IMG/VR virus record: IMGVR_UViG_3300028299_000132
Coordinates: 34,092-98,091 of that record
From: a virus
Direction: 5' to 3' (one strand)
Length of the DNA stretch: 64,000 nucleotides
A model generated the notes under the pieces. It worked only from the letters and a program-made list of their open reading frames with translations, made no database searches and was not told the origin of the DNA. Each line of letters begins with the position of its first letter. The stretch's first letter is position 1. Position numbers and translations under genes: made by a program. Shown here piece after piece: positions 2,180-60,697 of this stretch.

Positions 2180-3275
2180 TTATTTCATTTTTAAACTCAT
2201 TTTTTAATTTCAAAAATATTTTAAATATTTTTATTTCCGAATCATTTAATTTTGTGTCTGTCCAATATCCAGGGTGTTTTTGAATTGTTGAATCATCTAG
2301 TTTCTTTTTGAAATCTATAAGCGTATGTACATTATTTTCACCAGTATTTCGGTCACTAGTCAAAATTATATCATTATAATCAATCATAAGAAATGTATAC
2401 CCATCTTGTATTTGTTTAAATTCAGCTATATATGAATTATTTTTTATTTTTTTATTTAAAATAACAACCCAGAAATACCCATCTATGATATGTTGGTTGT
2501 ATATTTTCTCAGATATAGTACACCAGTATGGGTATTTTATTATATTCATTGATTCATAAGTGAATGGTTGATAAATCAACCATTCATCATCTTCATAATA
2601 TATTTTTATATCATTTGATTTTTTTAATTTTGATATATTATCTGCACTTATTAATGATTCAGTGCCTCTAACATATTTTATCCATTCTTTAGGAGTCTCA
2701 AACATAGATATTTTACCTCTCAATAGACCAATATCTATATTATCAATAAATCTTTTTTTATCAAATCGTCCAGGATTAAATAGAACATTTCTAAGATTAA
2801 AAAAATTATCTTTCTTCCTATCCTTTAATTCTTTTTTTAAAAATCCAGGAGCCCATTTATCTATAAATTTATTTGTATCTATATCTTTTTTAATGTTGTT
2901 TATATCTATTATAAGAGAAGAATGATAATTATCTATCTGTTTAATATATTTATCTATGTCTATTTTAATATTGTGATTAACAATTAAATCAATACACCTC
3001 ATTATGTTATCTAATATAGATTTCTTATCTCTTCCATTACGATTATATAATTCTAGATATAATAATCTAGTGAACAAATATAAATATCCAAGTTTACCTA
3101 AAGATTTTAAATTATTTTTTATTATTGAGTATATTTCTAAAAAATTCTTCCATTCCTCATCTGTTTGTAAATACCTACCCTCCATCCCACCGTGTTTTGA
3201 TGTCCCTTTAGGTCTATTATTTACAAATTTTTCAGCTTGCTGTAAATTTTCAAATATTTTATAATCTTTTATCAT
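2172..3275 (-). CDS. Hypothetical protein with CTS-like N-terminus (MIKDYKIFEN)
   Basis: 367-aa ORF; N-terminal tag; YPYWCTI motif. Confidence 0.7.
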   Translation of the reverse strand: MIKDYKIFENLQQAEKFVNNRPKGTSKHGGMEGRYLQTDEEWKNFLEIYSIIKNNLKSLGKLGYLYLFTRLLYLELYNRNGRDKKSILDNIMRCIDLIVNHNIKIDIDKYIKQIDNYHSSLIIDINNIKKDIDTNKFIDKWAPGFLKKELKDRKKDNFFNLRNVLFNPGRFDKKRFIDNIDIGLLRGKISMFETPKEWIKYVRGTESLISADNISKLKKSNDIKIYYEDDEWLIYQPFTYESMNIIKYPYWCTISEKIYNQHIIDGYFWVVILNKKIKNNSYIAEFKQIQDGYTFLMIDYNDIILTSDRNTGENNVHTLIDFKKKLDDSTIQKHPGYWTDTKLNDSEIKIFKIFLKLKNEFKNEIIK

Positions 3276-4504
3276 AGATATTTAGACATTAATTTTAATA
3301 GTTCTCCTCTATTTATTGGTTTTGATATGTACTCATTACATCCTAATTTCATCATACGGTCTTTATCATCCATGTACGCGAACGCGGATTGAACTATGAT
3401 TGGTATATTATTTTTATTACCCCTTATTATTTCTATGATTTTATCACCATCAATATCTGGTAATCTTATATCTAACAATAATAAATCATATTTTTTATTT
3501 TTTACCATTTCTAAACATTCCTTTCCTGTTTTAGCCCAATCTAAATTACATAATGTTGAATGTAATATTTCTCGTATTAGATTAAAATTATCTTTTATAT
3601 CCTCAGTAATAAGTATTTCTTTATGGATAAAATCATAATCAATTAACTTTTCAGATTTTTCTATTTTTTCCTCACTTACTTCAACTGGTAAAATAAAATA
3701 AAATTCTGTTCCTTTATTTAGTTCTGATTTTACATAAATTTTTCCACCAAGTAATTCTATTATTCCTTTTGATATTGATAATCCAAGTCCAGTTCCTTTT
3801 AAATATTCTTTTCTATTAACTTGGTAAAATCTATTAAAAATTTCTTCTTGATCTTCTTCACTTATACCAATCCCAGTGTCTTTAACATAGAATTTTATAT
3901 TATTATTTTCTACAATTTCACATCCATATTCAATAAATCCTTTATCCGTGAATTTTATTGAATTACTTATTAGATTATCAATCACTTGTTTTAATCTAGT
4001 TCTATCTGAAATAATATTACAATCATCTAAATCTTCTGGTAAATAATATAATAATTTTATTTTTTTATTTAGTAATTTTTGATTTATTGAAAACGATTCA
4101 TATATTTCTTCAATTAAATTATATAAAGAAAATGATATTTTTTCTAATCTTAACTCACCGACTTCTATTTTAGAAAAATCAATTATATCATTTATTAATG
4201 ACATTAATTGACTCCCATTTTTATTTATAACATCTAGATATTTTTTTATTTGTTGTTCATTGAATCCATTTGTTGTTAATAATTCAGAAAATCCTATTAT
4301 ACTATTCATAGGAGTTCTTATTTCATGACTCATATTCGCTAAGAACATTGATTTGAGTCTATCGGATTTTTCAGCTTTTTCTTTTTCTTCTTTTAATCTT
4401 TCGTTTTTCTCTGTTAACTCCTTAATAATTTCTCTTAACTCTAATTCTAATTCTCTAATCTCATTTTCTTTCTTATGTTCAAGAAATTCTTTACCATTAG
4501 CCAT
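3272..4504 (-). CDS. Hybrid histidine kinase/response regulator without a sensor domain
   Basis: FLANMSHEIRTPMN (HisKA), NLISNSIKFT, DTGIG, GTGLGLSI (HATPase), C-terminal receiver ILITED/LLDIRLP/ISKP. Confidence 0.95.
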   Translation of the reverse strand: MANGKEFLEHKKENEIRELELELREIIKELTEKNERLKEEKEKAEKSDRLKSMFLANMSHEIRTPMNSIIGFSELLTTNGFNEQQIKKYLDVINKNGSQLMSLINDIIDFSKIEVGELRLEKISFSLYNLIEEIYESFSINQKLLNKKIKLLYYLPEDLDDCNIISDRTRLKQVIDNLISNSIKFTDKGFIEYGCEIVENNNIKFYVKDTGIGISEEDQEEIFNRFYQVNRKEYLKGTGLGLSISKGIIELLGGKIYVKSELNKGTEFYFILPVEVSEEKIEKSEKLIDYDFIHKEILITEDIKDNFNLIREILHSTLCNLDWAKTGKECLEMVKNKKYDLLLLDIRLPDIDGDKIIEIIRGNKNNIPIIVQSAFAYMDDKDRMMKLGCNEYISKPINRGELLKLMSKYL

Positions 4505-5304: not shown

Positions 5305-5781
5305 TTATCCTCTTGTATTTTGTATAATAAGTTTTATCATATCTAGTCTAATATCATCTGTACACCAGTATCCTAACTCTTCATTATAGTCCAATTCTAT
5401 AAAGTATGAGGTAATCATATCATATTCCTGAAATGTGATTTTTATTATCTCTCCACTAGGAATAAACAACAAATCTATAAAATCATCATTTTTCATTTTC
5501 TTTTTCATATTTTTACCATTACGATAAATTGACTCAAATATACTATTATTTTCCCTATATTTCAATTCTTTTGTGAATATTTCTATGAGATTTTTCCCAC
5601 GATTCTTACCATATACTTTAATATGTTTTTGAACATACGGAATGAGATTATTTAACTGACTATTTGTTATATTTTTTAATTTTATTCTTCTACCTTCTTT
5701 GGTTGACCAAACAAAATCATTTCTCAATTTAAGGAATTTATCATCAAAATCTATATCTTCAAATAATTTTAAATATTTCAT
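5305..5781 (-). CDS. Tagged protein with C-terminal PSGE-family domain
   Basis: MKYLKLFEDIDFDD start; DLLFIPSGEIIKIT. Confidence 0.75.
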   Translation of the reverse strand: MKYLKLFEDIDFDDKFLKLRNDFVWSTKEGRRIKLKNITNSQLNNLIPYVQKHIKVYGKNRGKNLIEIFTKELKYRENNSIFESIYRNGKNMKKKMKNDDFIDLLFIPSGEIIKITFQEYDMITSYFIELDYNEELGYWCTDDIRLDMIKLIIQNTRG

Positions 5782-5785
5782 ATTC

Positions 5786-6751
5786 TTATTTTACAATTTT
5801 TAAAAATAGATCAAATTTTATTTCCTTTCTACCATCTTTAGTATAACTTCCCGAACTTGGTGAATAGTATCCACCAATAGTATAATTATAATTAATATCC
5901 CAATTCCCCCATTTTATTGATTGTAATACCCTCTTATTTTTTTCTGTTACTTTAATACACCAATTTTGTGGTACTTTTGGTTTTGGTTCTTCTTCTTCAT
6001 ATTCCCAATCATTTTCATCAAAATCTATACTTTCCTTTATATTACCAATTACTGTAATTCTATCATCTCCTATTAATGATATATTATCCCCACTATTGAC
6101 AACTTTACAGAATTCTATTCTAGGATAATCGTAGTTATTGTATTCTGGTACTAATGATGGCACCTTAAATTCTTTGACAGAAATCTTTCTCCATGATTTA
6201 TATATCTTCTCCTCTTTTTTATATTCATATACATGTATTTTTTTACCACTTATATTATCATTTAACCAGTTTATAAATTTGTGAATATCTTTACCTACGT
6301 GTTCATATAATTCATATAATATAAATTCCTCTTTATCAAATGGTTCCTCATCTTCATAATCCCAATCATCAAAGTCAATTGATTCAGTTATTACTTTTTG
6401 AAAATAATCATCCATTTTTTCATCATCTTCAACAAAAAATTTCCATCCAGAGTGAGGTAGTTCTATTTTTCCCCTAAAAAAATACACTGTAACCTTCTGA
6501 TGTGGATGATTCTTCCTAGTTCTATTAGAAGTATAGGCATCAGTATAGACACCAGTTTTATCTTTTCTTATTCTTTCAATCTTTAATTCTTCACCAACAT
6601 CAAATTCTGACGCGAATCTAAATACGGGGTGTTCATAAGACTTTATACATCTGACTATATCACCAGCTTTAAACTTATCTCCAATTGTTTCTGGTTCATT
6701 TTCCCAATCAAAATCAAAATCTATTTCTTCGTATAATTTAATATATTTCAT
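5786..6751 (-). CDS. Tagged modular protein (3 acidic-tag units)
   Basis: MKYIKLYEEIDFDFDWENEP; internal ITESIDFDDWDYEDEEP and IKESIDFDENDWEYEEEEP. Confidence 0.8.
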   Translation of the reverse strand: MKYIKLYEEIDFDFDWENEPETIGDKFKAGDIVRCIKSYEHPVFRFASEFDVGEELKIERIRKDKTGVYTDAYTSNRTRKNHPHQKVTVYFFRGKIELPHSGWKFFVEDDEKMDDYFQKVITESIDFDDWDYEDEEPFDKEEFILYELYEHVGKDIHKFINWLNDNISGKKIHVYEYKKEEKIYKSWRKISVKEFKVPSLVPEYNNYDYPRIEFCKVVNSGDNISLIGDDRITVIGNIKESIDFDENDWEYEEEEPKPKVPQNWCIKVTEKNKRVLQSIKWGNWDINYNYTIGGYYSPSSGSYTKDGRKEIKFDLFLKIVK

Positions 6752-6816: not shown

Positions 6817-7437
6817 ATGAATGACGATGAATTAAAGAAAATTAAACTAACAACAAATATTGAAAATCTAAAACAGACAATTAAAGACTTAAAGGATGAG
6901 AGTTCAATGAATATTAATGATTTGATACCAAATAACATATTACCTGGATTAAATATAGAGATATATGATTATGATAAAGATATTGAGTTAATAAAAGAGG
7001 AGTCAGAGGAGACTTTAGAATGTATATCTAGTTTATATTTAAATGATGAAACAATGATGAATAAGAATATAAATCGACTGATAAAAAATGATGCAGATGA
7101 AATAGGTGATATAAAATTTTCATTGTCTTGTGCGAAACGAGGTTTAATAAATTGTATGACACAACTAGACTCTGGTTCGAATGACCCTGAAATGCATAAC
7201 GCTGTTAATTCATACCAAAAAGAAATCAGAGAGTCAAATAAAACAATTCATGATTTATTAAATAAAATGAAGATATTTTATAAAGATTTAAGGGATGAAT
7301 TAAAAACCGATAATAATATAAATGTTGGTAAAGAACTTTTGGATTATGATGGTGATGATTTAAAAATTGTTGATAAATCAGAGATGAATAGATTAATAGA
7401 ACAATATAAAAAAGATCCAACTCTACTTAAAGAATAA
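6817..7437 (+). CDS. Hypothetical helical/coiled-coil protein
   Basis: 206-aa ORF preceded by TAATATATA motif. Confidence 0.7.
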   Translation: MNDDELKKIKLTTNIENLKQTIKDLKDESSMNINDLIPNNILPGLNIEIYDYDKDIELIKEESEETLECISSLYLNDETMMNKNINRLIKNDADEIGDIKFSLSCAKRGLINCMTQLDSGSNDPEMHNAVNSYQKEIRESNKTIHDLLNKMKIFYKDLRDELKTDNNINVGKELLDYDGDDLKIVDKSEMNRLIEQYKKDPTLLKE

Positions 7438-7653
7438 TTCCGTTAATATATTCATTATTTTTTCTCTGTCTTTATCTTCATAAAAATATGAATATATTGG
7501 AATATATTTAATATTCATATAATCTTCCGAGAACGCTACAAAATAAACTAATTTTTCTTGTTTTAGATTATATAATTCAAAATCAGTGATTTCTAATATT
7601 TCTCCACTAGGATATCCAACTAAATCTAATATTTTTTTATTTGATTTCTTCAT
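7423..7653 (-). CDS. PSGE-family paralog
   Basis: LDLVGYPSGEILEIT. Confidence 0.75.
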   Translation of the reverse strand: MKKSNKKILDLVGYPSGEILEITDFELYNLKQEKLVYFVAFSEDYMNIKYIPIYSYFYEDKDREKIMNILTELFFK

Positions 7654-8059
7654 TTACATCCCTAACCTTTTCTATATCATCTTTTATATATACACCATCA
7701 GTACCTCTGAATTTAACCATATATAATATATCACTAGGACTATATATCTTACTTAAATTTCTTCCATTAATTAACTGTCCATCATATTCAATAATATCAA
7801 CTACCTCTCCAACTTTTCCTATTTTCTTGATTCTTACAACAGTACCTTTTTTAATTTCATATAATATTTCTATTATTTCATCATAATCTTCATCATTAAA
7901 TTCCCAATATTCCCCCTCCATACCTACATCGTAATTGATGTTAATATATGGTAATAATATATAAGCTTCATCATTTGTTATTGTTATTATTTGACCACTT
8001 GGTAGTCCAACCAAGATATCATCTTCAAATCTATCATATCTATTTGGATCATAATGCAT
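7637..8059 (-). CDS. PSGE-family paralog with C-terminal SH3/KOW-like region
   Basis: DILVGLPSGQIITIT; IKKGTVVRIKKIGKVGEV. Confidence 0.75.
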   Translation of the reverse strand: MHYDPNRYDRFEDDILVGLPSGQIITITNDEAYILLPYININYDVGMEGEYWEFNDEDYDEIIEILYEIKKGTVVRIKKIGKVGEVVDIIEYDGQLINGRNLSKIYSPSDILYMVKFRGTDGVYIKDDIEKVRDVNEEIK

Positions 8060-8453
8060 CTTGCACTAAAAATATTTTTTGATTATTTAAGTTCCCTTTC
8101 AATAGATTTTCTAGATTGACATAAATCTGTAATTCGAATTCTATACGATTATCACCAAATGTTACAGCGTAACCATCTTTTCCTAACGAACTCGCTATCA
8201 CTCCAGTTATTCTACCATATCCATGTAATTGATGAAAGATTTTATCTCCTATTTTAATATTGTAAAAAATCATACTCTTTATATCCTCCCTCAAATCATC
8301 TCTAAATACATAAGAATCTATTTTTACACCATTAAAATATTCTAAATATTTAACAAATTTTACAAGTACTAAATCATATAAAGACGATTCTCTACATTTC
8401 AAAACCTCTCCACTAGGAATTCCAACGATATCAGTAATTGGCCCTCTTTTCAT
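8049..8453 (-). CDS. PSGE-family paralog with C-terminal SH3-like region
   Basis: DIVGIPSGEVLK; IKIGDKIFHQLHGYGRI. Confidence 0.75.
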   Translation of the reverse strand: MKRGPITDIVGIPSGEVLKCRESSLYDLVLVKFVKYLEYFNGVKIDSYVFRDDLREDIKSMIFYNIKIGDKIFHQLHGYGRITGVIASSLGKDGYAVTFGDNRIEFELQIYVNLENLLKGNLNNQKIFLVQDAL

Positions 8454-8611
8454 AAACTAACTTGTCGTATTATATTTTTATTTGTGTCTTTATAAATAAA
8501 ACATTCAAATTCAAAACTCCAATATACTAATTTTCTTTTTAATAAAAAATCTGCACTAGCTTTTTCTTTTTTCATAACCTCACCACTTGGGTATCCATAT
8601 ATTTCAATCAT
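8450..8611 (-). CDS. PSGE-family paralog (53 aa, not in ORF track)
   Basis: MIEIYGYPSGEVMKKEK...RQVSL; ATGA overlaps at both ends. Confidence 0.8.
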   Translation of the reverse strand: MIEIYGYPSGEVMKKEKASADFLLKRKLVYWSFEFECFIYKDTNKNIIRQVSL

Positions 8612-8823
8612 ATTTCATCAATATAAAAAATCTTATACTTATATTCATCTTTTGATATGTACCCGTGAACATCTTTCATATCACCATCAATATCAACAAA
8701 TCTTTTGTATGTTATAAATTTAGTACTAATTAATTTATTTAAATTTCTTCTATTAACTGTAATAACCTCACCACTAGGTAATAATAAAATTTCAAATGTT
8801 TTTTCATCAAATCTTAAAACCAT
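8608..8823 (-). CDS. PSGE-family paralog
   Basis: FEILLLPSGEVITV. Confidence 0.75.
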   Translation of the reverse strand: MVLRFDEKTFEILLLPSGEVITVNRRNLNKLISTKFITYKRFVDIDGDMKDVHGYISKDEYKYKIFYIDEI

Positions 8824-19328: not shown

Positions 19329-20651
19329 ATGAACTACTACAACACTAAAGATGTTGTAGTTTCTAGAACTTAAACAAGTTCCTTCTCTTTCAACGCTTCA
19401 ACGCCTGTGCCATCAAATGATGGTCTTATTTTGGCTCTGCGTTTGTAATCGGATGTTCCACCCGATATATTTTTTCTACATCCTTCATTGAGAATGTTGA
19501 TTGCTGCATTTATATCTCTATCAAGAATTTCGCCACACTCTTTACAAGTCCAAGTTCTATCTTTTAATGTTAAAGAACTATTGATATAACCACATTTAGA
19601 ACAGGTTTTACTTGAAGGAAAAAACCTATCTATATGTACGATTTCTTTATCATTCCATTCTGCTTTGTATGTTAAAATATCAATGAATTTACCCCAACTA
19701 ACATCACCAATGGATTTTGCTAATTTATGGTTTTTCATCATTCCTTTTACATTCAAATCTTCAAGATAGATTTTATCAAATTGATTTACAAGGTTTAATG
19801 TAGTTTTATGAATTAAATCCATTCTTGAATTGGTTATTTTTTCGTGGATTTTTGATACTTTAACTCTTTTCTTTTCATAATGGTTACTACCTTTTATTTT
19901 TCTTGATAGATGTTTTTGATTTTTGGATAAAAGTCTTTCATAGTGTTTAAGAAATCTATGGTTCTTGATTTTCGTTCCATTAGATAACACTAAAAAATCT
20001 TTTATTCCTAAATCTATTCCTACTGAATTTCCAGTTTTAACTGATGGAGTATATTCCTTTTCAGTTAGAATTGAAACAAAATACTTTCCAGTAGGGGTTT
20101 TACTTAATGTTGCTTTTTTTATTTTTCCTTTAATCTCTCGTTCCATTATCATTTTTATTCCATCATTAAATTTAGGAAAGTATATTTTATTTTCCTCATT
20201 TTTAACATGTTGTGGTACGGTAAATGAATTTCTTGATTTTTTTGACTTAAAACGAGGAAATTGAGTTCTTTTATTAAAGAAATTTTGATATGACATTTCC
20301 AAACATTTTAATGAATACTGGAGTGTTTGTGAATTAATTTCTTTCAACCATTCAGTTTTTTCATTCTTTTTTAATTTAGTTAAATAACCTGATTGTTTAT
20401 TATAAGTAATTGATTTTTTGTTATTTAAGTATTCTTCTTTTCTTTGGTTAAGGAAGTAATTATACACATATCTAACTGAACCAAAATGTTTATTTAAAAG
20501 AACTTCTTGTTCTTTTGTTGGGTTCAATCTAAATTTGTATGTATATTTAATTTCTTTCATATAATTATTCAAAACTAATTTCTTTTGTATAACTATATAT
20601 AATTAAAAAATAATGAATTTTTTCCATCGTGGTTTTATTGGTGTGGTCTTT
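19329..20651 (-). mobile_element. IS200/IS605-family (IS1341-type, tnpB only) element
   Basis: Right-end hairpin gaaactacaacatctttagtgttgtagtagttcat; partial left-end catcgtggtttt; flanked by TTTAT; removing it restores a TATATA promoter region. Confidence 0.85.
19370..20572 (-). CDS. tnpB: RNA-guided endonuclease TnpB
   Basis: HTH start YKFRLNPTKEQ, RuvC GIDLG / LEDLNV / DRDINAAINI, Zn finger CSKC..CKEC. Confidence 0.95.
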   Translation of the reverse strand: MNNYMKEIKYTYKFRLNPTKEQEVLLNKHFGSVRYVYNYFLNQRKEEYLNNKKSITYNKQSGYLTKLKKNEKTEWLKEINSQTLQYSLKCLEMSYQNFFNKRTQFPRFKSKKSRNSFTVPQHVKNEENKIYFPKFNDGIKMIMEREIKGKIKKATLSKTPTGKYFVSILTEKEYTPSVKTGNSVGIDLGIKDFLVLSNGTKIKNHRFLKHYERLLSKNQKHLSRKIKGSNHYEKKRVKVSKIHEKITNSRMDLIHKTTLNLVNQFDKIYLEDLNVKGMMKNHKLAKSIGDVSWGKFIDILTYKAEWNDKEIVHIDRFFPSSKTCSKCGYINSSLTLKDRTWTCKECGEILDRDINAAINILNEGCRKNISGGTSDYKRRAKIRPSFDGTGVEALKEKELV

Positions 20652-25740: not shown

Positions 25741-26796
25741 TCAAAGTTTTATATTTTTTAGTTGTGGATCATATTCATAACTAAAATTATTATCTGCTTC
25801 ATATTTTCTAATCATTCTAATCAATTTTTCTATTTTTGGATAGTTTTTGTATATTATTAAAACTTTATTAAGGTCTTTAGTCTTATTGGGATCAAATCTA
25901 CCTCCTGTGGTTATTTCAGAACTATCCATAGTACTTTTTCTATGGAAGTCTATTATGTAATAGAAATCTGGATCTTTTAATATTTTTCTTATAACTTTTC
26001 TTCCATCATATGTAGATTCCTCATCTACTATTAAATATCCACAATGTTTTATAAACGATTTAAATACTTTATATCCAAATCCAATATTTTTTATCATACT
26101 TGAAAGATGTATAAATCCTTGCATATGTGCAGTAAATCTAATATGACCAAAATGTGACTTTTCATCTCTTTTACTCAAAAAGAAAAACCATTTATTTTTC
26201 TCATTTTCAACTCCAACAGACGAGATTAATCCCAATCTTTCTATTTTATTCTCTAGATTTTTATTTTTCAATTTGAGAAAATATCTTTTATCTCCTGGAT
26301 ACCGCGTCCCTTTTCTTTCTATAAAATAAATATCCTCATCTGATATATTTTTCAGTTTATTAATAACATTATTTATTTCAAATCTTTTTATAAAATTAGG
26401 TTTATGGGTTGATCTTTTAAATATAGCACGATCTTTTATGTTACTTAAGAAAAAATTTGGATTGTCTTTGTACCACTCTTCTGTTATATTTTCTTTAATA
26501 TATTGTATTTTTTCTCTTTCATCTAATAGATAGAATCTATTATCAACTTTTAATTCAAATTCTCCAATTTTATTCTTTTTAACATCTTGTAATATACCCT
26601 CAACATATTTTGACCACCAATCTACTTTAAACCTAACTTGTTTACCTATTAGTTGTTTAAGATTCAGATAGTTTTCTTCATGTTTTAATGACGAATTTGT
26701 AAAAGGATTATCATATTCTAATGTTGTGTATGGTTCATATTCTTCCCAGTCCATATCATCAAAATCAATATCTTCAAATAATTTTATATATCTCAT
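25741..26796 (-). CDS. Tagged protein with C-terminal GNAT-like domain
   Basis: MRYIKLFEDIDFDDMDWEEYEP; KNIGFGYKVFKSFIK..DPDFYY shared with 38362-39072. Confidence 0.7.
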   Translation of the reverse strand: MRYIKLFEDIDFDDMDWEEYEPYTTLEYDNPFTNSSLKHEENYLNLKQLIGKQVRFKVDWWSKYVEGILQDVKKNKIGEFELKVDNRFYLLDEREKIQYIKENITEEWYKDNPNFFLSNIKDRAIFKRSTHKPNFIKRFEINNVINKLKNISDEDIYFIERKGTRYPGDKRYFLKLKNKNLENKIERLGLISSVGVENEKNKWFFFLSKRDEKSHFGHIRFTAHMQGFIHLSSMIKNIGFGYKVFKSFIKHCGYLIVDEESTYDGRKVIRKILKDPDFYYIIDFHRKSTMDSSEITTGGRFDPNKTKDLNKVLIIYKNYPKIEKLIRMIRKYEADNNFSYEYDPQLKNIKL

Positions 26797-36253: not shown

Positions 36254-37095
36254 ACCATTGTTATTAACATTTTTACAACAACTGGTATCATACAACCGAC
36301 AATAACACCAAAGAATTGTTGTGATACTTTTCCTTCACTTCTTACTTTTAATAATTTGTATAATCCCGTCGCGACCGCTCCACCTAGAACAACACCTAAC
36401 GCGTCACTAAATGTATTTCCTATACCCGCAGCTACCTGAGAATCAAATCCTAATCCGAGTATCCAACTCTCTACCGCGTCCATACCAACGAACATTCCTA
36501 GGTTATCTATTAATCCAAATGTCATCATAAAAGTACTACCAATAGCGAATGTTTTTATATTTGTTAATGATCTTCTAACGAAATTCGCGTTAACTTCTCG
36601 TTCTATATTATCCAATTCATTCATAATGGATTTTTTAGTTTCTTCTAGTTTTTTTGACACTTCTATTTTTATCAGCTCCATTATTTTATCTTTGTTTCTA
36701 TCAAAACTACCTTTTATATCATCTTTTGATACTAACTTATTCTCTCTAGCTATGTTTAATGCCGCTTTTACAGATAATCCAAGGTCTTCTTTTTTTAGAT
36801 TTGTCTTTAGTGTATCTACCATTTCAGCTTCAAATCTTTTGAAATATCTATCAAATTTATCTCTTTTTTCTGGTGTTAATCTCTTTAATAATTTACTGAT
36901 AAAAACTGTTATTGTTTGAATAGTTCTTTGTGATATTGTTTTAGCTGTTCTAAAGAAATTATAAATCTTATTTAATATCCTATTCGCCCAATTCATATTC
37001 GCTTCAGTTAACAGGTTAACATTAAAGATGAATCTATTAATCTCCCTTACTAAGTCTTCTTCTCTAAATGAATTATATTCGTTTATATAAATCAT
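36250..37095 (-). CDS. Membrane protein with TMEM65-like C-terminal domain
   Basis: FGLIDNLGMFVGMDAVE, AAGIGNTFSDALG, GVIVGCMI. Confidence 0.7.
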   Translation of the reverse strand: MIYINEYNSFREEDLVREINRFIFNVNLLTEANMNWANRILNKIYNFFRTAKTISQRTIQTITVFISKLLKRLTPEKRDKFDRYFKRFEAEMVDTLKTNLKKEDLGLSVKAALNIARENKLVSKDDIKGSFDRNKDKIMELIKIEVSKKLEETKKSIMNELDNIEREVNANFVRRSLTNIKTFAIGSTFMMTFGLIDNLGMFVGMDAVESWILGLGFDSQVAAGIGNTFSDALGVVLGGAVATGLYKLLKVRSEGKVSQQFFGVIVGCMIPVVVKMLITMV

Positions 37096-37430
37096 TGTTT
37101 TTCTATTATTTTATATACATCATATGGATGAACAAACCACCCGTGTCCATATTTACAACCATGATCACTAGTAGCGTGATTTTTTTCTCTATCTCCCATT
37201 ATATCATCTGGTAATTTTTTATCAAAACATATATAACACCAATCAAATCCTTTTCCACCTTTTAAAACAGTCCCGTTTCCATATTCTTCACTATATATTC
37301 TATCACCTTTTTTTAAACCTTCACCTAATCCAATTCTTTGTTTTTTGAGTTTTTTAATAGGATCTTCCTCTTCCCAATCAAAATCATCAAAGTCAATGTC
37401 TATTTCTTCAAATAATTTTATGTATTTCAT
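37092..37430 (-). CDS. Tagged protein with SH3-like domain
   Basis: MKYIKLFEEIDIDFDDFDWEEEDP; LKKGDRI..YGNGTV..GCKYGHGWFV. Confidence 0.75.
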   Translation of the reverse strand: MKYIKLFEEIDIDFDDFDWEEEDPIKKLKKQRIGLGEGLKKGDRIYSEEYGNGTVLKGGKGFDWCYICFDKKLPDDIMGDREKNHATSDHGCKYGHGWFVHPYDVYKIIEKQ

Positions 37431-40064: not shown

Positions 40065-40563
40065 TTGGGTATCCTCGTTAAAATAACGAGGTTAACGCTT
40101 CACAGACAAGGTGCTTCTCTGTTTTAACAACAAAGTCCACAGAGCTCGCCTCCACGTTCAATGCCCGACATCCCATCGGCCAGTTTTTTTTTTGGAAATC
40201 CACCAATTCCTTTAAAGAATCGTTTATATGCGTGATCTAGGTTCAATAATGATCCCTGTAAGGATTGACTGTTTATTTCCTTTAACCAATTTAATTCTTC
40301 TTTCAAATCAACTACCTGTTTCTGTAAATCAAATCTTGATATATTAACTTTGTTTCTGTACGCGTTAATTTTTGTTTCAAGCGCGAGATTATAAATAAAT
40401 CTTGTTGACCCAAAATGCTTATTTAATAATTCTTTCTGATCATCTGTGGGATATAAACGATATTTAAAGGCTTTTAACATATATTTATATATAAAATATT
40501 CAATATGCTTTTTTATCTATAAAAAGGCTGTACCTAACCCCACCTCAAGGGGATGGGGAATTC
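40065..40563 (-). mobile_element. Internally deleted IS605-family tnpB remnant (different end sequences)
   Basis: TnpB N-terminus MLKAFKYRLYPTDDQ...GGFPK fused to a 3' GC-rich omegaRNA-like tract; hairpins cctcgtta/taacgagg and cccca..tgggg. Confidence 0.8.
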
Positions 40564-40580: not shown

Positions 40581-40940
40581 TTAAATTACTTTAACGTTTA
40601 TAATTTTAGTTTTAATTGGCTTTTTTTCCCATCCTCTTTTAAGTGAAAATGTTATTAAACAAGTACCTTCTGATTCACCTTTAATTCTAAATATTTTATA
40701 GGTAGTTTTTTCTTTTCTTCCTGAAGAGATTAACCATTTTGACTCAACACTAACATTATCATTCTCCAATTTTTTATTCCACACATATCCAGTGGATGGT
40801 AATACATCAATTCTATATTCAAATGTTTCACCAACTTTTATAGTGTAGTCTATATTCTCGTCTTCCCATTCAAAATCATCAAAATCAATCTTTTCAAATA
40901 CCTTCGGATTCACATCCGTGAATAATTTAATGTGTTTCAT
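40581..40940 (-). CDS. Tagged chagasin-like (I42) protease inhibitor domain protein
   Basis: VGETFEYRI..PSTGYVW...GTCLITFSLKRGWE matches chagasin NPTTGY-W / RPW loops. Confidence 0.65.
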   Translation of the reverse strand: MKHIKLFTDVNPKVFEKIDFDDFEWEDENIDYTIKVGETFEYRIDVLPSTGYVWNKKLENDNVSVESKWLISSGRKEKTTYKIFRIKGESEGTCLITFSLKRGWEKKPIKTKIINVKVI

Positions 40941-41291: not shown

Positions 41292-41837
41292 TTATCCTAT
41301 TTTATTTATCTTTGTGATAATACCATTGTCAATGTTGACATTTATTCTTTTATTATTAAGTTCCAGGACCGTTCAATCCTTTTTTCAAGCAAGGAGATGG
41401 GCCATTGTTCCATAATAACATTGATTATCTCTTTTATTTACTCGTATAATCCAATCCTTTGGTATTTCTTTTTTAGCTTCTTGTTCTGTCATACCAAGTA
41501 ATTGACTTGGACGAAACGCACCGTGACGATCATTTCTGACATCACCCGTATCTTCCCATTCCATATCATCAAAATCTAAATCTTCATTTTGTTTTTTATA
41601 TGGATAAGCTTTTGATGCTGCTTCTCTAATATCCTTTTCAATTGATTTTCTGTTTATTTTCCACGCTTGATGTCCAAATATACCAGCGGTTAAAGAATTT
41701 TTATTTGGATTTTTATCTAACCAGTTTTTAATCGCGTCAATAGTCTCTAGTATATCCTTTTCAGGAATATCAACTTTTTTTCTTATAGAAAAGTCAACTT
41801 CTTCGTTATATTCTCCAAATGTTTTTAGAGTTTTCAT
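41292..41837 (-). pseudogene. Tagged protein with I78/potato-inhibitor-I-like domain, disrupted by a 39-nt insertion
   Basis: LLGMTEQEA...IRV...YYGTM [insert with two TGA] ELNNKRINVNIDNGIITKINKIG. Confidence 0.7.
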
Positions 41838-44803: not shown

Positions 44804-46066
44804 TTAAGATGGTAAATTTGGTTTATCAAAACTTATTTTATTTCTAATCTCTTCTGGTAATTCATTTAAATACTTATTTGGTGTGTTTAGTAAATCAATT
44901 TTTGTATTATTATCTAAAATTTGTTTCTTTTCGTCATTATTTAATTGGCGAAATATATCACCATCAGTATACTTATAATCATTATAAAGAATATATCTAT
45001 ATTTTTTCTTTTCTAATTTCTCAACACTCATTATTAAATATATATCACTACCATACCGACCAAGAAAATGTTCATTTGGTTCCTCTTCTTCCCATTCCCA
45101 ATCATCTTCATTGAAATCTATATTTTCAGTTAATTCACTCATTTTTTTCCCACATTTCTTACATTGTTTATAATGTTCTGTCTTACAGTACTTCATCTTT
45201 GGATATGGATAAGACATTTTTGTTTTTTCTACCCAATCATGATCACAAGTTTCTTCCTCATCTTCCCAATCAATATTATCAAAATCTATACTCTCATTGA
45301 ATTCTAACCATTTTTTATTTTTTACTCCTGTATTTTTTGCTCTATTTTTTACAATTTGAATCTTTCTTTTTTCTTTTATAATTTCACTAAACCACATTTC
45401 TTTTGGAAATTTTTTGAAAAATTCTTCCATATTCATACTAGATTTGGTTCTAGAATAATAAAAATCAATATAATTTTTAAAAGATTTAATCCAATCTTCA
45501 TAATAATTATTTGTGGTTAGAAATCTATGAAAATCTTTAGGCATACCTTTTGGTTTCTTACGACTAATTGGTTCCTCTTCTTCAAAATCCCAATCATCAA
45601 AATCTATATCCATTGATTCAACCATCCTATTTTTTGGTATATTCAATTCACCTATATCATATATTTTTATAAAATTATTTACATCAGATTTAAACACCAT
45701 TAAACTTTCTTTACCTCTAGCTCTGAATGAACTTTCAGTTTTTTCTGATACAACAAATAATCTTTTGTCATAAATAAAATAATCACCAACTTCAAGACCA
45801 TTACCATCAACTTTATATCCCTTTACAAATCTATCAGCTTTTACGGTATAACTTTGACTATCATGACTTCCATGTAAAGTAACTACTCCATTTCTTATTC
45901 TAGTAACTACTCCAGTCCATAAATTAGTTGTATGGAGATACTCATTATTACATTTCGCGATCAAGTAATCACCAATATGAATTTCTTTATCAAACGGTTC
46001 ATTCTCTTCCCATTCCCAATCATCATCATTGAAATCTATTTCTTCAAATAATTTTAAATATTTCAT
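44804..46066 (-). CDS. Tagged modular protein (4 acidic-tag units)
   Basis: FEEIDFNDDDWEWEENEP, VESMDIDFDDWDFEEEEP, NESIDFDNIDWEDEEE, TENIDFNEDDWEWEEEEP. Confidence 0.8.
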   Translation of the reverse strand: MKYLKLFEEIDFNDDDWEWEENEPFDKEIHIGDYLIAKCNNEYLHTTNLWTGVVTRIRNGVVTLHGSHDSQSYTVKADRFVKGYKVDGNGLEVGDYFIYDKRLFVVSEKTESSFRARGKESLMVFKSDVNNFIKIYDIGELNIPKNRMVESMDIDFDDWDFEEEEPISRKKPKGMPKDFHRFLTTNNYYEDWIKSFKNYIDFYYSRTKSSMNMEEFFKKFPKEMWFSEIIKEKRKIQIVKNRAKNTGVKNKKWLEFNESIDFDNIDWEDEEETCDHDWVEKTKMSYPYPKMKYCKTEHYKQCKKCGKKMSELTENIDFNEDDWEWEEEEPNEHFLGRYGSDIYLIMSVEKLEKKKYRYILYNDYKYTDGDIFRQLNNDEKKQILDNNTKIDLLNTPNKYLNELPEEIRNKISFDKPNLPS

Positions 46067-47446: not shown

Positions 47447-48514
47447 TTAAATTTTAATGTATTTAAATTCGTGTTGGTATTCAATTTTCTTTAAAACTTC
47501 AAAGATTAAATCTTCAGTTTTTTTAATATCTTCAATATCAACAGTTTCCACTGTTGTGTGCATATATTTCAAAGGAAGTGATATCAAACAAGATGGAACT
47601 CCACCTACGGAGTACGCGAAAGAATCAGTGTCGGTTCCTGTTGAACGACTACAAACTTTTCTTTGAAAATCAATCTTTTGTTTTGTTGCGACTCCCTCAA
47701 CCAATTCAAGGAGTTTTTGTTGAATCGGTGCACCATATGTTAAAACTGGTCCTTTACCGCAACGAATATCACCATTTTTCATTTTTTCCATCATTGGTGT
47801 TGTTGTATCGTGTGTTACATCAAGAATTAACGCTGCGTTTGGACGAATTGTTTCCACAATCATTCTAGAACCTCTAAGTCCAACTTCTTCTTGTACCGCG
47901 TTAACAACATATAAACCAAATGGTAATTTCACTCCTTCTTCTCTTAGTCGTTTAACAACCTGTGTTAGAATATAACCACCCATTTTGTTGTCTAATGCAC
48001 GACCAGTATAGAATTTATTATTCATTTTTGTTAATTCATCTGGATATGTGACTAAACACCCAACATAAATTCCTGATGATTCAACATCCTTTTTTGATGT
48101 AAATCCACAGTCAATAAAGATATTATCCGCGGATGCGTGAGTTTCTTTGGTACCAGTACCTCTTGTATGAATCGCTGGCCAGCCAAAGAATCCAGGTATT
48201 AGTCCATTTTTAGTATGGATATTAACTCTTTTAGATGGTGCTATTTGATGATCTGCTCCACCATTTTTTTTCACATAGATATATCCTTTATCTGTTATAT
48301 AACTAACAATAAATGATATTTCATCAACATGTGCTTCAATTACTACTTTAAAATCAGAATCTGGATTAATTATACCAACTGCGGTTCCATAATGGTCGGT
48401 TATAAATTTATCAACATAATCCTTCATATAATTTACCCAAATTTGTTGGGATTCATTTTCATATCCACTTGGGGATAGACTGTTTAGATAAAGTTCTAAA
48501 AATTTTTTACTCAT
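47447..48514 (-). CDS. M42-family aminopeptidase
   Basis: SPSGYE, EAHVDEI, RALDNKMG, VQEEVGLRG, LDVTH, GTDTD, YMHTTVE. Confidence 0.92.
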   Translation of the reverse strand: MSKKFLELYLNSLSPSGYENESQQIWVNYMKDYVDKFITDHYGTAVGIINPDSDFKVVIEAHVDEISFIVSYITDKGYIYVKKNGGADHQIAPSKRVNIHTKNGLIPGFFGWPAIHTRGTGTKETHASADNIFIDCGFTSKKDVESSGIYVGCLVTYPDELTKMNNKFYTGRALDNKMGGYILTQVVKRLREEGVKLPFGLYVVNAVQEEVGLRGSRMIVETIRPNAALILDVTHDTTTPMMEKMKNGDIRCGKGPVLTYGAPIQQKLLELVEGVATKQKIDFQRKVCSRSTGTDTDSFAYSVGGVPSCLISLPLKYMHTTVETVDIEDIKKTEDLIFEVLKKIEYQHEFKYIKI

Positions 48515-49754: not shown

Positions 49755-51130
49755 AAAAATGTCAAAAGAAAACCACGATGTCTTTAGCATCGTGGATGAA
49801 TTTTGACGAACATCATTCAAATTATTTTTGGAAAAATATGACTTTTTCATTTTAATATATATTTATAATAAAGAAAACGAAAAAAGTTGTATAAAATGAA
49901 AAAGAGTTATTCTATAAGACTATTTCCGATTAAAGAACAGATAAGTCAATTAAATGAATTATCTGAAATAAGGAAAGATATATGGAATAAACTCATTGAT
50001 GTTCAACAAAAAGAATATGAAACAAACAAAACTATATTAAACAAATTCGATTTGAATAATTTACTTCCAGAATTAAAAGAACAATATATAAATTGGAAAA
50101 AATTAAATTCAAAAGCCGTTCAAACTATTGCCACAGAAATATACGGTTCATATCGTTCATTTTTCAATTTAATTAAAAAAGATAAAACGGCAAGACCACC
50201 AAGAAAGATAGATTCTGACTATTATCATACTATCGTTTGGAATCAGTCTGGTTGGATTATTCAGAGTAATATAATAACAATTAATAAGATTCCATTTGAA
50301 TATAAATCAAAAATAGATATATCAACATTAGATATAAAAGAAATCAAAATTAAATTTGTAAGAAATAAATGGTTATGTGATTTGATTGTTGAAGAACCAA
50401 TACAATATGAAGATAATCTAAAAATTAAGACTAAAGTTTTAGCAATCGATTTGGGTTTAGAAAAATTAGCAGTAGGTGTTGATAACAAAGGTAAAATGAT
50501 TGTATTGAAGAATAAATCAAAGAAAATAAATGATTATTATCAAAAAGAAATAGCAAAAATACAAAACAAAAGAAGTAAAACCAATAAAGGTTCAAAAAGA
50601 AATTTAAAATTAAAGAAAGTATTAAATAAATGTTACCATAAAAAGAACGAACAGATAAAACAAACTCTACATATTCAGAGTAAATATTTAGTGAATATGA
50701 ACTACAACACAATTGTAGTCGGTGATTTAAGTGTTAAAAATTTAATGAATAGTGAAGGTGTTAATAAAAACAAAAAAGGTATTAGAAAATCTTTTCACAA
50801 ATCTAATATTAATATGTTTTTACAATTTCTTGGTTATAAATGTCAGTTAAAAAACACAAACCTAACCAAGATAAATGAAAATTGGACTACTCAATTAAAT
50901 TGTTTAACTGGAAAGGTATTCAAAGAAAAAATTGAACTTAAAGATAGACAAGTTCAATTATCAGATACAATCACTATTGATCGTGACTTAAATTCAGCCA
51001 TAAACATTCTTAAACGATGGTTTGATAGTCATATTGCTTCTATGAACGAGCCACTTAATATTTTAAGTGTTCTTGATAGATACAACATCTATAAGGAAAC
51101 TACGACATCTTTAGTGTCGTAGTAGTTCAT
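49755..51130 (+). mobile_element. IS200/IS605-family tnpB-only element
   Basis: Inserted 3' of TTTAT; left-end hairpin ccacgatg-tctttag-catcgtgg; right end actacgacatctttagtgtcgtagtagttcat; no target duplication. Confidence 0.9.
49896..51122 (+). CDS. tnpB: TnpB-family protein with atypical RuvC-II and degenerate Zn finger
   Basis: AIDLG, IVVGDL (no Glu), INENWTTQ, DRDLNSAINI. Confidence 0.85.
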   Translation: MKKSYSIRLFPIKEQISQLNELSEIRKDIWNKLIDVQQKEYETNKTILNKFDLNNLLPELKEQYINWKKLNSKAVQTIATEIYGSYRSFFNLIKKDKTARPPRKIDSDYYHTIVWNQSGWIIQSNIITINKIPFEYKSKIDISTLDIKEIKIKFVRNKWLCDLIVEEPIQYEDNLKIKTKVLAIDLGLEKLAVGVDNKGKMIVLKNKSKKINDYYQKEIAKIQNKRSKTNKGSKRNLKLKKVLNKCYHKKNEQIKQTLHIQSKYLVNMNYNTIVVGDLSVKNLMNSEGVNKNKKGIRKSFHKSNINMFLQFLGYKCQLKNTNLTKINENWTTQLNCLTGKVFKEKIELKDRQVQLSDTITIDRDLNSAINILKRWFDSHIASMNEPLNILSVLDRYNIYKETTTSLVS

Positions 51131-55293: not shown

Positions 55294-55635
55294 TTACACT
55301 ATATCATCCGCCTTTAAATTCCATTTTGTATGCATAAATATTTTGTAATCAATAATATTTTTTGGGATGTCCGAATTGGATGATCTAACCCATTTTTTTG
55401 AAAAATCATCAAATGAAAATTTCTCCCATCCATCCATACCAGTTTTCAATATTTCATCATAATGATATATTCTAAATCCAAGTTCTTTTAATTTTTTTAC
55501 AATTTCTATAGCTTCACTATCATTATTTGGAACTATATAACAATCAGTTAATTCATCTTTATCAAATTTTTCTTCATCAAAATCGTCTTCAATCTCTTCC
55601 CAATCAAAATCTTCAAATAATTTAAGATATTTCAT
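55294..55635 (-). CDS. Tagged hypothetical protein
   Basis: MKYLKLFEDFDWEEIEDDFDEE. Confidence 0.75.
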   Translation of the reverse strand: MKYLKLFEDFDWEEIEDDFDEEKFDKDELTDCYIVPNNDSEAIEIVKKLKELGFRIYHYDEILKTGMDGWEKFSFDDFSKKWVRSSNSDIPKNIIDYKIFMHTKWNLKADDIV

Positions 55636-56396
55636 TTGTATCCTAGTTTTTTTAATACTTCGATATCTTTAATTGATTCTATATAATCTCTTCTATATTT
55701 ATCAAGATTATTACAAAAATATTTTATAAATTTTAAATCATTTTCTTTCCATTTTCCATTCTTATCAACAGTAAAACTGAGACTTTTATTTATTACTAAT
55801 TGTAATAATCCCATTTTATTTCCTTTTGTGAATGTCTTAATATCAGTTATAACAGCTAGCCTCGGAGTATAATTATTAGTAATATCACTCTGGGTGACTA
55901 ATAATATTTTACCTTTATATTTGAATAATGTTTCCAATTCATCTGTTTTATCAAATTCTTCAAATTCCCATGGTTCCTCATCTAATTCCCATTCTTCAAT
56001 TTTTGGTTCCTCTTTTTTTGGTTTTCCCCAATTTAATTCTTCATTTGTCCGTTGTTCAGCTTTTCTTACTGTATTATCTATTTTAAACCATGGATATTTT
56101 CCACTGATAATCATCATATATCCTTCGTAAATATATTTTGGTATGGTTGTATTATATGACGCATCTTTAGTTATTTCTGTACTATATTTTATATCTTTTA
56201 TTTTATGAGATTCAATTGTATCATTTCCAATATATTTTTTAAATACATTAGTATCTCTTCTTGTTTCCCAAAGTTCAGTATCGTTTGATATATATACCCA
56301 ATCACCAACTTTGAGATTCATATCTGGGTCTTCTTCTTCAAATTCCCAATCATCTTCGTTAAAATCAATTTCCTCAAATAGTTTTATTCTCTTCAC
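55632..56396 (-). CDS. Tagged modular protein
   Basis: GTG start; KRIKLFEEIDFNEDDWEFEEEDP; internal TNEELNW..EEWELDEEPWEFEE. Confidence 0.7.
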   Translation of the reverse strand: MKRIKLFEEIDFNEDDWEFEEEDPDMNLKVGDWVYISNDTELWETRRDTNVFKKYIGNDTIESHKIKDIKYSTEITKDASYNTTIPKYIYEGYMMIISGKYPWFKIDNTVRKAEQRTNEELNWGKPKKEEPKIEEWELDEEPWEFEEFDKTDELETLFKYKGKILLVTQSDITNNYTPRLAVITDIKTFTKGNKMGLLQLVINKSLSFTVDKNGKWKENDLKFIKYFCNNLDKYRRDYIESIKDIEVLKKLGYK

Positions 56397-60193: not shown

Positions 60194-60697
60194 TTATATA
60201 TATGATGTATGTTTATCACCATTTTCATCATATCCAATTAACCAAATATCACCTAGATAACATTTAAATTGATAATCAGCTTGTGGGTCATTTGGAACAC
60301 CTTCAATTAATTCTTCTATATCATCATCAATTTTTACATCATCTTTTCTATATGACCTAATGACATATCTATTAATCTTTCTATCGTAGTGAAGATCACC
60401 CGTATAATTTAAAACTTTTTGTAATCTTTTATATTTATCAACTATTTCTGTTATCTCATCAATATGTTCATCAATTTCTGAATATTTTATTCCCAAATTA
60501 ATTGTCTCTGGGTGTGTCGTGTCCGCGTCACCACCCTCGTACAGAAGATACAGATATACTTCATCTCGTTGAGCTTTATTTGAAAGTCTGAAATTTAATT
60601 TAATTCTTGGTTTTGTTTTTGGTTCCTCTTCTTCAAATTCCCAATCATCTTCAAAATCAATCTCTTCAAATAATTTTATGTATTTTTTAATTTTCAC
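60194..60697 (-). CDS. Tagged hypothetical protein
   Basis: KYIKLFEEIDFEDDWEFEEEEP; YEGGDADT. Confidence 0.75.
   Translation of the reverse strand: MKIKKYIKLFEEIDFEDDWEFEEEEPKTKPRIKLNFRLSNKAQRDEVYLYLLYEGGDADTTHPETINLGIKYSEIDEHIDEITEIVDKYKRLQKVLNYTGDLHYDRKINRYVIRSYRKDDVKIDDDIEELIEGVPNDPQADYQFKCYLGDIWLIGYDENGDKHTSYI

Follow-up and report, generated by a model that had tools for sequence, protein, structure and literature searches.

The window analysed here is a stretch of viral DNA of 64,000 nucleotides (nt), corresponding to bases 34092-98091 of a linear IMG/VR virus contig (98,091 bp, 26% G+C) whose completeness is put at ~12% (CheckV). On its minus strand, positions 44804-46066 hold an open reading frame (ORF) of 420 amino acids (aa), ending in a TAA stop, which is built of four units, each made up of a short acidic and aromatic peptide, hereafter the tag, and the module that follows it; all four tags match a sequence profile, and further copies are carried by other genes of the contig. 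In its tail sheath of 1,268 aa the contig shares 54% identity with LR756501, a 735-kb uncultured phage, and 47% with LR756502; the sheaths of Lak phages, Flavobacterium phage MaF61 and Tenacibaculum phage PTm1 are more remote relatives. Because of these tail-sheath relatives, the contig is assigned to a very large myovirus-type megaphage, of which it is a piece; the host is probably a member of the Bacteroidota.

The 420-aa protein has one tag behind an N-terminal leader and three internal ones (coordinates are those of the window, unless given as genome positions). The leader MKYLKLFE and tag 1 (EIDFNDDDWEWEENEP) occupy aa 1-24 (45995-46066, minus strand, as are all parts of this gene; profile E = 4.5e-16) and are followed by module A (45626-45994), which is strand-rich with two 'GDY'-type repeats and is a homologue of the standalone protein P0003 (151 aa; 38% identity, E = 1e-8). 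Internal tag 2 (MVE-SMDIDFDDWDFEEEEP; 45569-45625; E = 6.4e-14) leads into module B (45302-45568), a predicted helical domain with a net charge of +13 that belongs to a recurrent F-x-x-F-L-x-x-N family. Internal tag 3 (FNE-SIDFDNIDWEDEEE; 45245-45301; E = 1.5e-11) precedes module C (45134-45244), a segment of ~37 aa whose Cys/His-rich pattern, as read from the sequence (C-x-H...C-x6-C-x2-C), is possibly a zinc ribbon. Internal tag 4 (LTE-NIDFNEDDWEWEEEEP; 45077-45133; E = 4.5e-15) is followed by the 89-aa module D (44807-45076), which falls into one BLAST-linked cluster with the standalone P0032 and with the first modules of P0015 and P0006, direct homology between them being a judgement by eye. 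The protein as a whole found no match by tblastn among 50,697 phage records, a search of IMG/VR for loci related to its gene returned no relative, and neither it nor a 321-aa tagged protein of the same window (ORF 5786-6751) has a family match in Pfam or PHROGs.

A preliminary description of the window had listed three internal tags in the 420-aa gene, two in ORF 5786-6751 and one in ORF 41385-41837, together with N-terminal copies on the genes ending at 26796, 37430, 40940, 56396 and 60697; every one of these copies was recovered.

Anatomy and spread of the tag

Profile A1, built from 19 copies, matches the individual tags of the 98-kb genome with E values of 1e-10 to 4e-16, far above chance, and the consensus reads h-x-E-x-IDF-(0-2 aa)-DDW-[DE]-[WFY]-EEEEP, where h is hydrophobic. 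The boundary peptide as a whole spans ~19-25 aa and comprises an aliphatic-x-Glu-x segment, an I/F-D-F core, a short acidic stretch, a D-[W/F]-[D/E]-[W/F/Y] segment and an E-rich run, often with a final Pro. Its anatomy was compared over 65 N-terminal and 55 internal copies: N-terminally the context is M-K-Y-[IL]-K-L-[FY]-E continued by E-I-D-F, and internally [I/L/V/T/M]-N-E continued by S-I-D-F-D-E-[DN]-D-[WF]-[DE]-[WFY]-E-E-E-[ED]-P. When cores were located without requiring a Glu, 112 of the 114 distinct cores had this residue two positions ahead of I/F-D-F and none had Asp there, the two cores that lack Glu being indel variants; at the remaining acidic columns of the tag, D and E interchange freely. 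Glu is present in 65/65 N-terminal leaders, with L or I at P3 (counting the Glu as P1) in 51 of them (L in 48); among the 55 internal tags, 48 have I, L, V, M or T at this position. The h-x-E still adjoins the tag where the tag is displaced from the leader (KVFE-K in ORF 40581-40940 and LLKE-D in P0005), and the preliminary description, in which the tags are preceded by ITE, IKE, MVE, FNE and LTE or by QNE, was accurate in every particular. Over the 17 residues from the Glu the median net charge is -10; the modules are neutral on average.

The DNA of the tags had likewise been described as similar from copy to copy, and a role of its own had been proposed for it. The similarity is real, but it is fully accounted for by codon bias: aligned identical residues in different tags use the same codon in 71% of cases, against 70% expected from genome codon usage, which rules out a DNA-level signal or gene conversion in the tags and gives no support to the proposed special role of tag DNA. 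Since the DNA is no more alike than codon bias predicts, selection acts on the tag peptide and not on the DNA, and recombination there is an outcome, not the reason why the tag is conserved.

Three known motifs were considered as readings of the peptide and rejected. An EF-hand calcium loop (D-x-[DN]-x-[DN]-G-x-[ILV]-x-x-x-E, 12 residues) is rejected by the absence of Gly at loop position 6 and is also contradicted by the variation of 0-2 residues in length between I-D-F and D-W. A 2A or StopGo peptide (D-[VI]-E-x-N-P-G-P), of the type known from viruses of eukaryotes, is rejected because N-P-G-P is missing, the tag ending in E-E-E-[ED]-P before variable residues, and a reading of the tag as an N-x-S sequon is ruled out on sequence grounds. 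The composition of the tag, D/E-rich runs followed by Pro, also suggests an effect on translation; acidic nascent chains are known from work in E. coli to destabilise the ribosome. The acidic run and Pro, close to the beginning of a nascent chain, would then destabilise or stall the ribosome, regulating the tagged genes or aborting synthesis at internal tags to give N-terminal fragments. This explanation is very improbable: it has no need of the conserved bulky aromatics and the I-D-F core, and abortion at internal tags would waste the downstream modules, yet these are conserved and intact.

A profile search of 1.84 billion proteins returned 65 cluster representatives (E <= 1e-3), 31 of them with 2-7 copies of the tag; the ten multi-copy representatives that were looked up are all metagenomic proteins without names, located on 1-6 contigs each. 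Two IMG/VR contigs of one metagenome (L003-L005) and a number of metagenome contigs yielded tag-bearing DNA. The tag was not found in LR756501, LR756502 or PTm1; LR756502 has the leader by itself, M[KR][YH]xKL[FY]E, at four places. As judged from these searches, the tag family is small and lineage-restricted. At two loci (L015 and L018) unit genes form dense tandem arrays in which neighbours often overlap by ATGA. Seventeen small ORFs (~50-140 aa) of a relative carry a different, C-terminal acidic/aromatic tag (EIEWEDITDEFEL; FEEIIEEEIEWEDITDEFE[LMI]) that is also conserved and often lies directly at the stop (L018:2300-12900 and L012:1392-1544, minus strand; metagenome contig Ga0268276_1001013). 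Many of them begin with MKKCKCIK, and they are interleaved with unit genes that have the N-terminal tag on the opposite strand; the C-terminal-tag family was not found on the window's own contig. A tubulin-tyrosine-ligase-like enzyme encoded on the plus strand (genome 22502-23905; L002:4502-5902) was considered as a modifier of the tag, a link that is not supported: because the tag-less LR756501 has a 49%-identical homologue, the gene is not specific to tag-bearing phages.

Module boundaries and recombination at the tag

Within one protein, the stretches that the tags delimit are unrelated to one another; their length has a median of 85 aa and an interquartile range of 77-96 aa. That the tags fall at domain boundaries, as the preliminary description had supposed, is borne out in several ways. 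Standalone P0003, the homologue of module A, stops at the point where the first internal tag starts in the 420-aa protein, and module B of ORF 5786-6751 recurs in P0002, where it comes first; in either protein it has a tag on each side, but its neighbours differ. BLAST clustering placed members of module families first, in the middle, last or alone. AlphaFold2 (AF2), run with a shallow alignment of 8 sequences, gives a helical bundle for module B of the 420-aa protein, with a predicted local distance difference test (pLDDT) score of ~70, and low-confidence coil for the flanking tags (pLDDT ~40 for the N-terminal and ~50-60 for the C-terminal tag). A single-sequence AF2 model of the whole 420-aa protein was unusable (pLDDT 37), and the model of module B found nothing significant by Foldseek against PDB, in a PDB profile search or in the ESM Atlas.

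Recombination breakpoints at the tags, which had also been anticipated, were found in three pairs of proteins that switch inside a tag. P0009 and P0013 are identical over residues 1-117, up to ...SINFDEDDWDYMED within tag 2, and unrelated beyond; P0023 and P0036 follow the same pattern, with 100% identity for 117 aa and no relation from within tag 2 onwards; and in P0005 and P0022 the last modules are nearly identical and the modules ahead of them different, the identity starting within the tag. The arrangement of P0013 was assembled from two samples, with 99.98% identity over 5.8 kb, so that an assembly chimera is unlikely there; one is possible behind the remaining breakpoint arrangements. 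Together, these results show that the tag peptide marks domain boundaries, is predicted to be disordered and is the site of recombination that reshuffles modules.

Breakpoints within tags, the dense arrays with ATGA overlaps at L015 and L018, and a negative charge that comes from the tag while the modules average out as uncharged would all be expected of a generic acidic spacer, a solubility 'bristle' that was spread through a family of paralogous genes by duplication and illegitimate recombination and kept mainly as a convenient in-frame joint, with neither processing nor a molecular partner specific to it. Such an origin is improbable, because a plain spacer would drift in sequence and length, whereas the I-D-F core, the aromatics and the Glu are conserved position by position over 120 copies beside unrelated modules; nor does the DNA show excess conservation, so it is the peptide itself that is selected.

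Putative cleavage and docking of the tagged units

The closest known system is the capsid-targeting sequence (CTS) of phage T4, which is carried by IPI-III and Alt and is removed by gp21 (PMC3012670, PMC5694885, PMC9026906). On the T4 internal proteins it has 10 residues: 4 and 7 serve targeting, and processing depends on 8 and 10; with Asp at position 10 the protein is still targeted but no longer processed (PMC9026906). The leader of the tagged genes resembles the CTS in being short (8 aa here, 10 aa in T4), in having two aromatics (positions 3 and 7) and in ending with aliphatic-x-Glu (L-F-E), and internal tags hold aliphatic-x-Glu in the same register as the leader. As in T4, the leader stands on otherwise unrelated, fast-evolving small proteins, and T4-type head modules with an S77 protease are present in relatives. 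Unlike the phage described here, T4 has neither a conserved acidic/aromatic segment after the cut site nor internal repeats of the signal that join unrelated domains, and it lacks multi-unit genes; packaging and cleavage are known in T4, whereas the tag system is known here from genes alone.

Cleavage after Glu is common to the proteases of T4, phiKZ and SPN3US (PMC9026906). In giant phages, gp175 (phiKZ), gp245 (SPN3US) and the protease of 201phi2-1 process head, inner-body and ejection proteins; many head proteins are cut after Glu, some of them at several sites, and paralogs in these phages have conserved N-termini in common (PMC10052503, PMC9026906). The cleavage motif of phiKZ and SPN3US is S/A/G-x-E, in contrast to the aliphatic P3 of the tag, which therefore does not conform to it. 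The multiple cuts of phiKZ-type systems mostly destroy long propeptides and do not release different folded domains, and systems of the phiKZ/SPN3US type lack a repeated 17-aa acidic tag.

Given the likeness to T4 and a Glu that is never Asp, the tag is tentatively read as both a site of cleavage and a docking signal of capsid cargo, which would make it a variant of the T4 capsid-targeting/gp21 system; we place the probability somewhat short of even. The basic unit is a boundary peptide plus a domain of ~85 aa, present once per gene or two to seven times. Tagged proteins would be cargo of a T4-type head-assembly pathway, with the leader acting like the T4 CTS; in single-unit genes the leader MKYLKLFE supplies the h-x-E. 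A Glu-specific prohead protease would cut after the invariant Glu, N-terminally and at each internal tag, and one gene would thus yield several small proteins, each with the same acidic/aromatic start. This peptide would dock to a common partner, one candidate being a prohead scaffold or core protein. Whether a unit was encoded alone or within a multi-unit gene, its mature product would be the same; units could then be fused, split or swapped at little cost, and this low cost would explain the observed shuffling. The polyprotein idea of the preliminary description holds as far as linkers that are boundaries and breakpoints are concerned; its cleavage part is consistent with the near-invariant Glu and is putative. 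Cleavage by a T4-type protease at the tag Glu is consistent with the tag's anatomy but putative, and so are the roles that the description had suggested for the acidic end, in sorting, ejection or DNA mimicry.

Genes for such a pathway were sought in the contig and its relatives. PTm1 has an S77 prohead-protease match of 45.7 bits in a gene that lies between those for portal and capsid and is annotated 'prohead core scaffolding protein and protease'; the matches in LR756501 and LR756502 (23-24 bits) are below the cut-off. No Peptidase_S77 match was obtained in the 98-kb fragment (~12% complete) or in G001/G002; no capsid or other head gene was found on the contig, and no capsid gene on G001/G002. 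When the lineage's head module was sought with the protease-scaffold ORF of LR756501, 29 IMG/VR loci were recovered; none of them carries tags, and therefore none can be assigned to the tag-bearing lineage.

Upstream sequences were compared as well. T[AT]ATATATA lies 10-60 nt upstream of 36/142 contig ORFs, including the tail sheath and a tail-tube-like gene; examples lie upstream of window positions 259 (sheath start at genome 30544), 43853, 46066, 37430 and 40940. Fifteen other ORFs, and 0/20 leader genes, are preceded by TAnnTTTG, an element of the Bacteroidota host type. The contig's upstream motifs suggest two promoter classes. TWATATATA precedes 8/20 leader genes, as it does the sheath and tube-like genes, which would fit late expression of capsid cargo; the enrichment is not significant (p = 0.16), which makes this promoter evidence weak.

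Several points weigh against cleaved capsid cargo. The system is known from the sequence of an uncultured phage, and the fragment, ~12% of a genome, has no match to a prohead protease or capsid gene. A cut site needs 3-4 residues, and the T4 model gives no role to the 16 conserved residues after the Glu. In the internal tags P2 is Asn in 31/55 and P3 is polar or charged in ~7/55, neither of which is a T4 rule. Leader genes, with 12 strict copies in 98 kb, are very many for virion cargo, and the TWATATATA motif is not significantly enriched at them. The C-terminal acidic/aromatic tag of the relative, finally, fits a general docking-peptide system without cleavage.

A second explanation does without cleavage and takes the proteins for 'beads on a string': the tag would be a disordered short linear motif with aromatic anchors in an acidic tract that docks each domain to a common phage or host hub inside the infected cell, the Glu would be a contact residue, and multi-unit proteins would be multivalent. 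We regard this as doubtful, yet as the main alternative. It is favoured by a segment of ~17 aa with a net charge of -10 and 2-3 conserved aromatics, predicted to be coil, that stands ahead of unrelated domains in 2-7 copies per protein, by conservation that reaches far past the needs of a cut site, and by the 17 proteins of the relative, whose different, C-terminal tag suggests docking of a peptide irrespective of position. Comparable handles are known: the acidic tip at the C-terminus of bacterial SSB and the acidic tails of phage single-stranded DNA-binding proteins are short, disordered docking peptides with aromatic anchors and many partners. SSB-type tips are C-terminal and need a free carboxyl end, unlike the tag, which is N-terminal or internal and has the core I-D-F...D-W-E-W. 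Docking by itself fails to explain why h-x-Glu is constant and never Asp while adjacent acidic positions vary, or why the N-terminal copy lies at a fixed distance behind an 8-aa, CTS-like leader; random module orders are also harder to tolerate in a permanently fused protein, and the partner is a hypothetical hub.

The reading of the tag as cut site and docking tag on capsid cargo can be taken further, to a portable address and cut-site peptide of ~25 aa that would turn any small domain into capsid cargo in a clade of uncultured megaphages, whose genes of up to seven units would encode true polyproteins cut by the head protease, with the tag as an in-frame recombination joint and, as the outcome, a combinatorial and rapidly evolving set of small injected proteins with a common acidic/aromatic start; in this full form we consider it unlikely. 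A literature search on phage polyproteins with capsid-targeting signals found no description of such a system. If the tagged proteins are cargo, what is new relative to T4 is the second, acidic/aromatic part of the signal and its repetition between unrelated domains of one gene. Units that were cut and packaged would constitute a polyprotein strategy in a tailed double-stranded DNA phage and, if this is true, would widen capsid targeting, which in T4 serves a few internal proteins, to a large repertoire subject to shuffling, provide a sequence rule to predict virion cargo among the unknown genes of huge phages, and supply a small natural tag with which foreign proteins could be loaded into phage heads. 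Even if uncleaved, a 17-aa motif conserved ahead of over 100 unrelated domains is a pointer to a hub protein of megaphages that is new to science, and the tag illustrates cleanly how domains are shuffled in nature at a defined joint.

Other tagged genes and neighbouring genes of the contig

The remaining tagged genes of the window lie on the minus strand. The 321-aa ORF at 5786-6751 has three units, with an N-terminal tag (6680-6751) and internal tags ITE-SIDFDDWDYEDEEP (6335-6391) and IKE-SIDFDENDWEYEEEEP (5984-6040); its module B has a relative in module 1 of P0002. In ORF 41385-41837 the internal tag, KQNE-DLDFDDMEWED (41538-41594), is degenerate (profile E = 9.4e-5). The single-unit gene 37092-37430 carries leader and tag at 37359-37430 (E = 4.2e-16), and the 351-aa ORF 25741-26796 carries the leader and a variant tag (IDFDDMDWEEYEP; 26725-26796; E = 7.5e-9). 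In ORF 40581-40940 the leader MKHIKLF is separated from the tag by a 9-aa spacer with a VFE end, so that the tag begins 16 aa in (40845-40940); its cargo, a chagasin-family cysteine-peptidase inhibitor (PF09394, E = 8e-10), is the sole tagged module with a Pfam or PHROGs match in the searches run here. Two genes with a GTG start complete the set, ORF 55632-56396 (P0026; leader and tag at 56325-56396), which has a second, degenerate acidic/aromatic segment (EEWELDEEPWEFEEF) in mid-protein, and ORF 60194-60697 (leader and tag at 60617-60697). Another N-terminal copy lies outside the window, at genome 12124-12492. Amber read-through as a means of making or extending tagged ORFs was ruled out, their stops being TAA or TGA.

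Five tandem small paralogs (53-140 aa; 7423-8823, minus strand) have a common N-terminal [GL]-x-P-S-G-[EQ]-[VI] motif (for example GYPSGEILEI, GLPSGQIITI and GIPSGEVLKC), which is also present in the C-terminal half of the leader-bearing ORF 5305-5781. An M42-family glutamyl aminopeptidase homologue (Pfam 243 bits; 47447-48514, minus strand) is encoded 1.4 kb from the 420-aa gene; from its family assignment, the enzyme could be a trimmer of N-terminal acidic residues. A hybrid sensor kinase at 3272-4504 (minus strand) unites HisKA, HATPase_c and receiver domains in one 410-aa protein (Pfam E = 1e-20 to 1e-27). N-termini resembling TnpB/IS200-605 OrfB (MKEIKYTYKFRLNPT, MKKSYSIRLFPI and MLKAFKYRLYPT) occur in ORFs at 19370-20560 (minus strand), 49896-51122 (plus strand) and 40124-40480 (minus strand), two of them full-length and one short, as judged from the N-terminal part. 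Three copies of an HNH/homing endonuclease (phrog_3339, E down to 1e-130) are located at window 359-2179 (plus strand) and at genome 12504-14090 and 29457-30401 (both minus strand), and one of them directly follows the tail-sheath gene.

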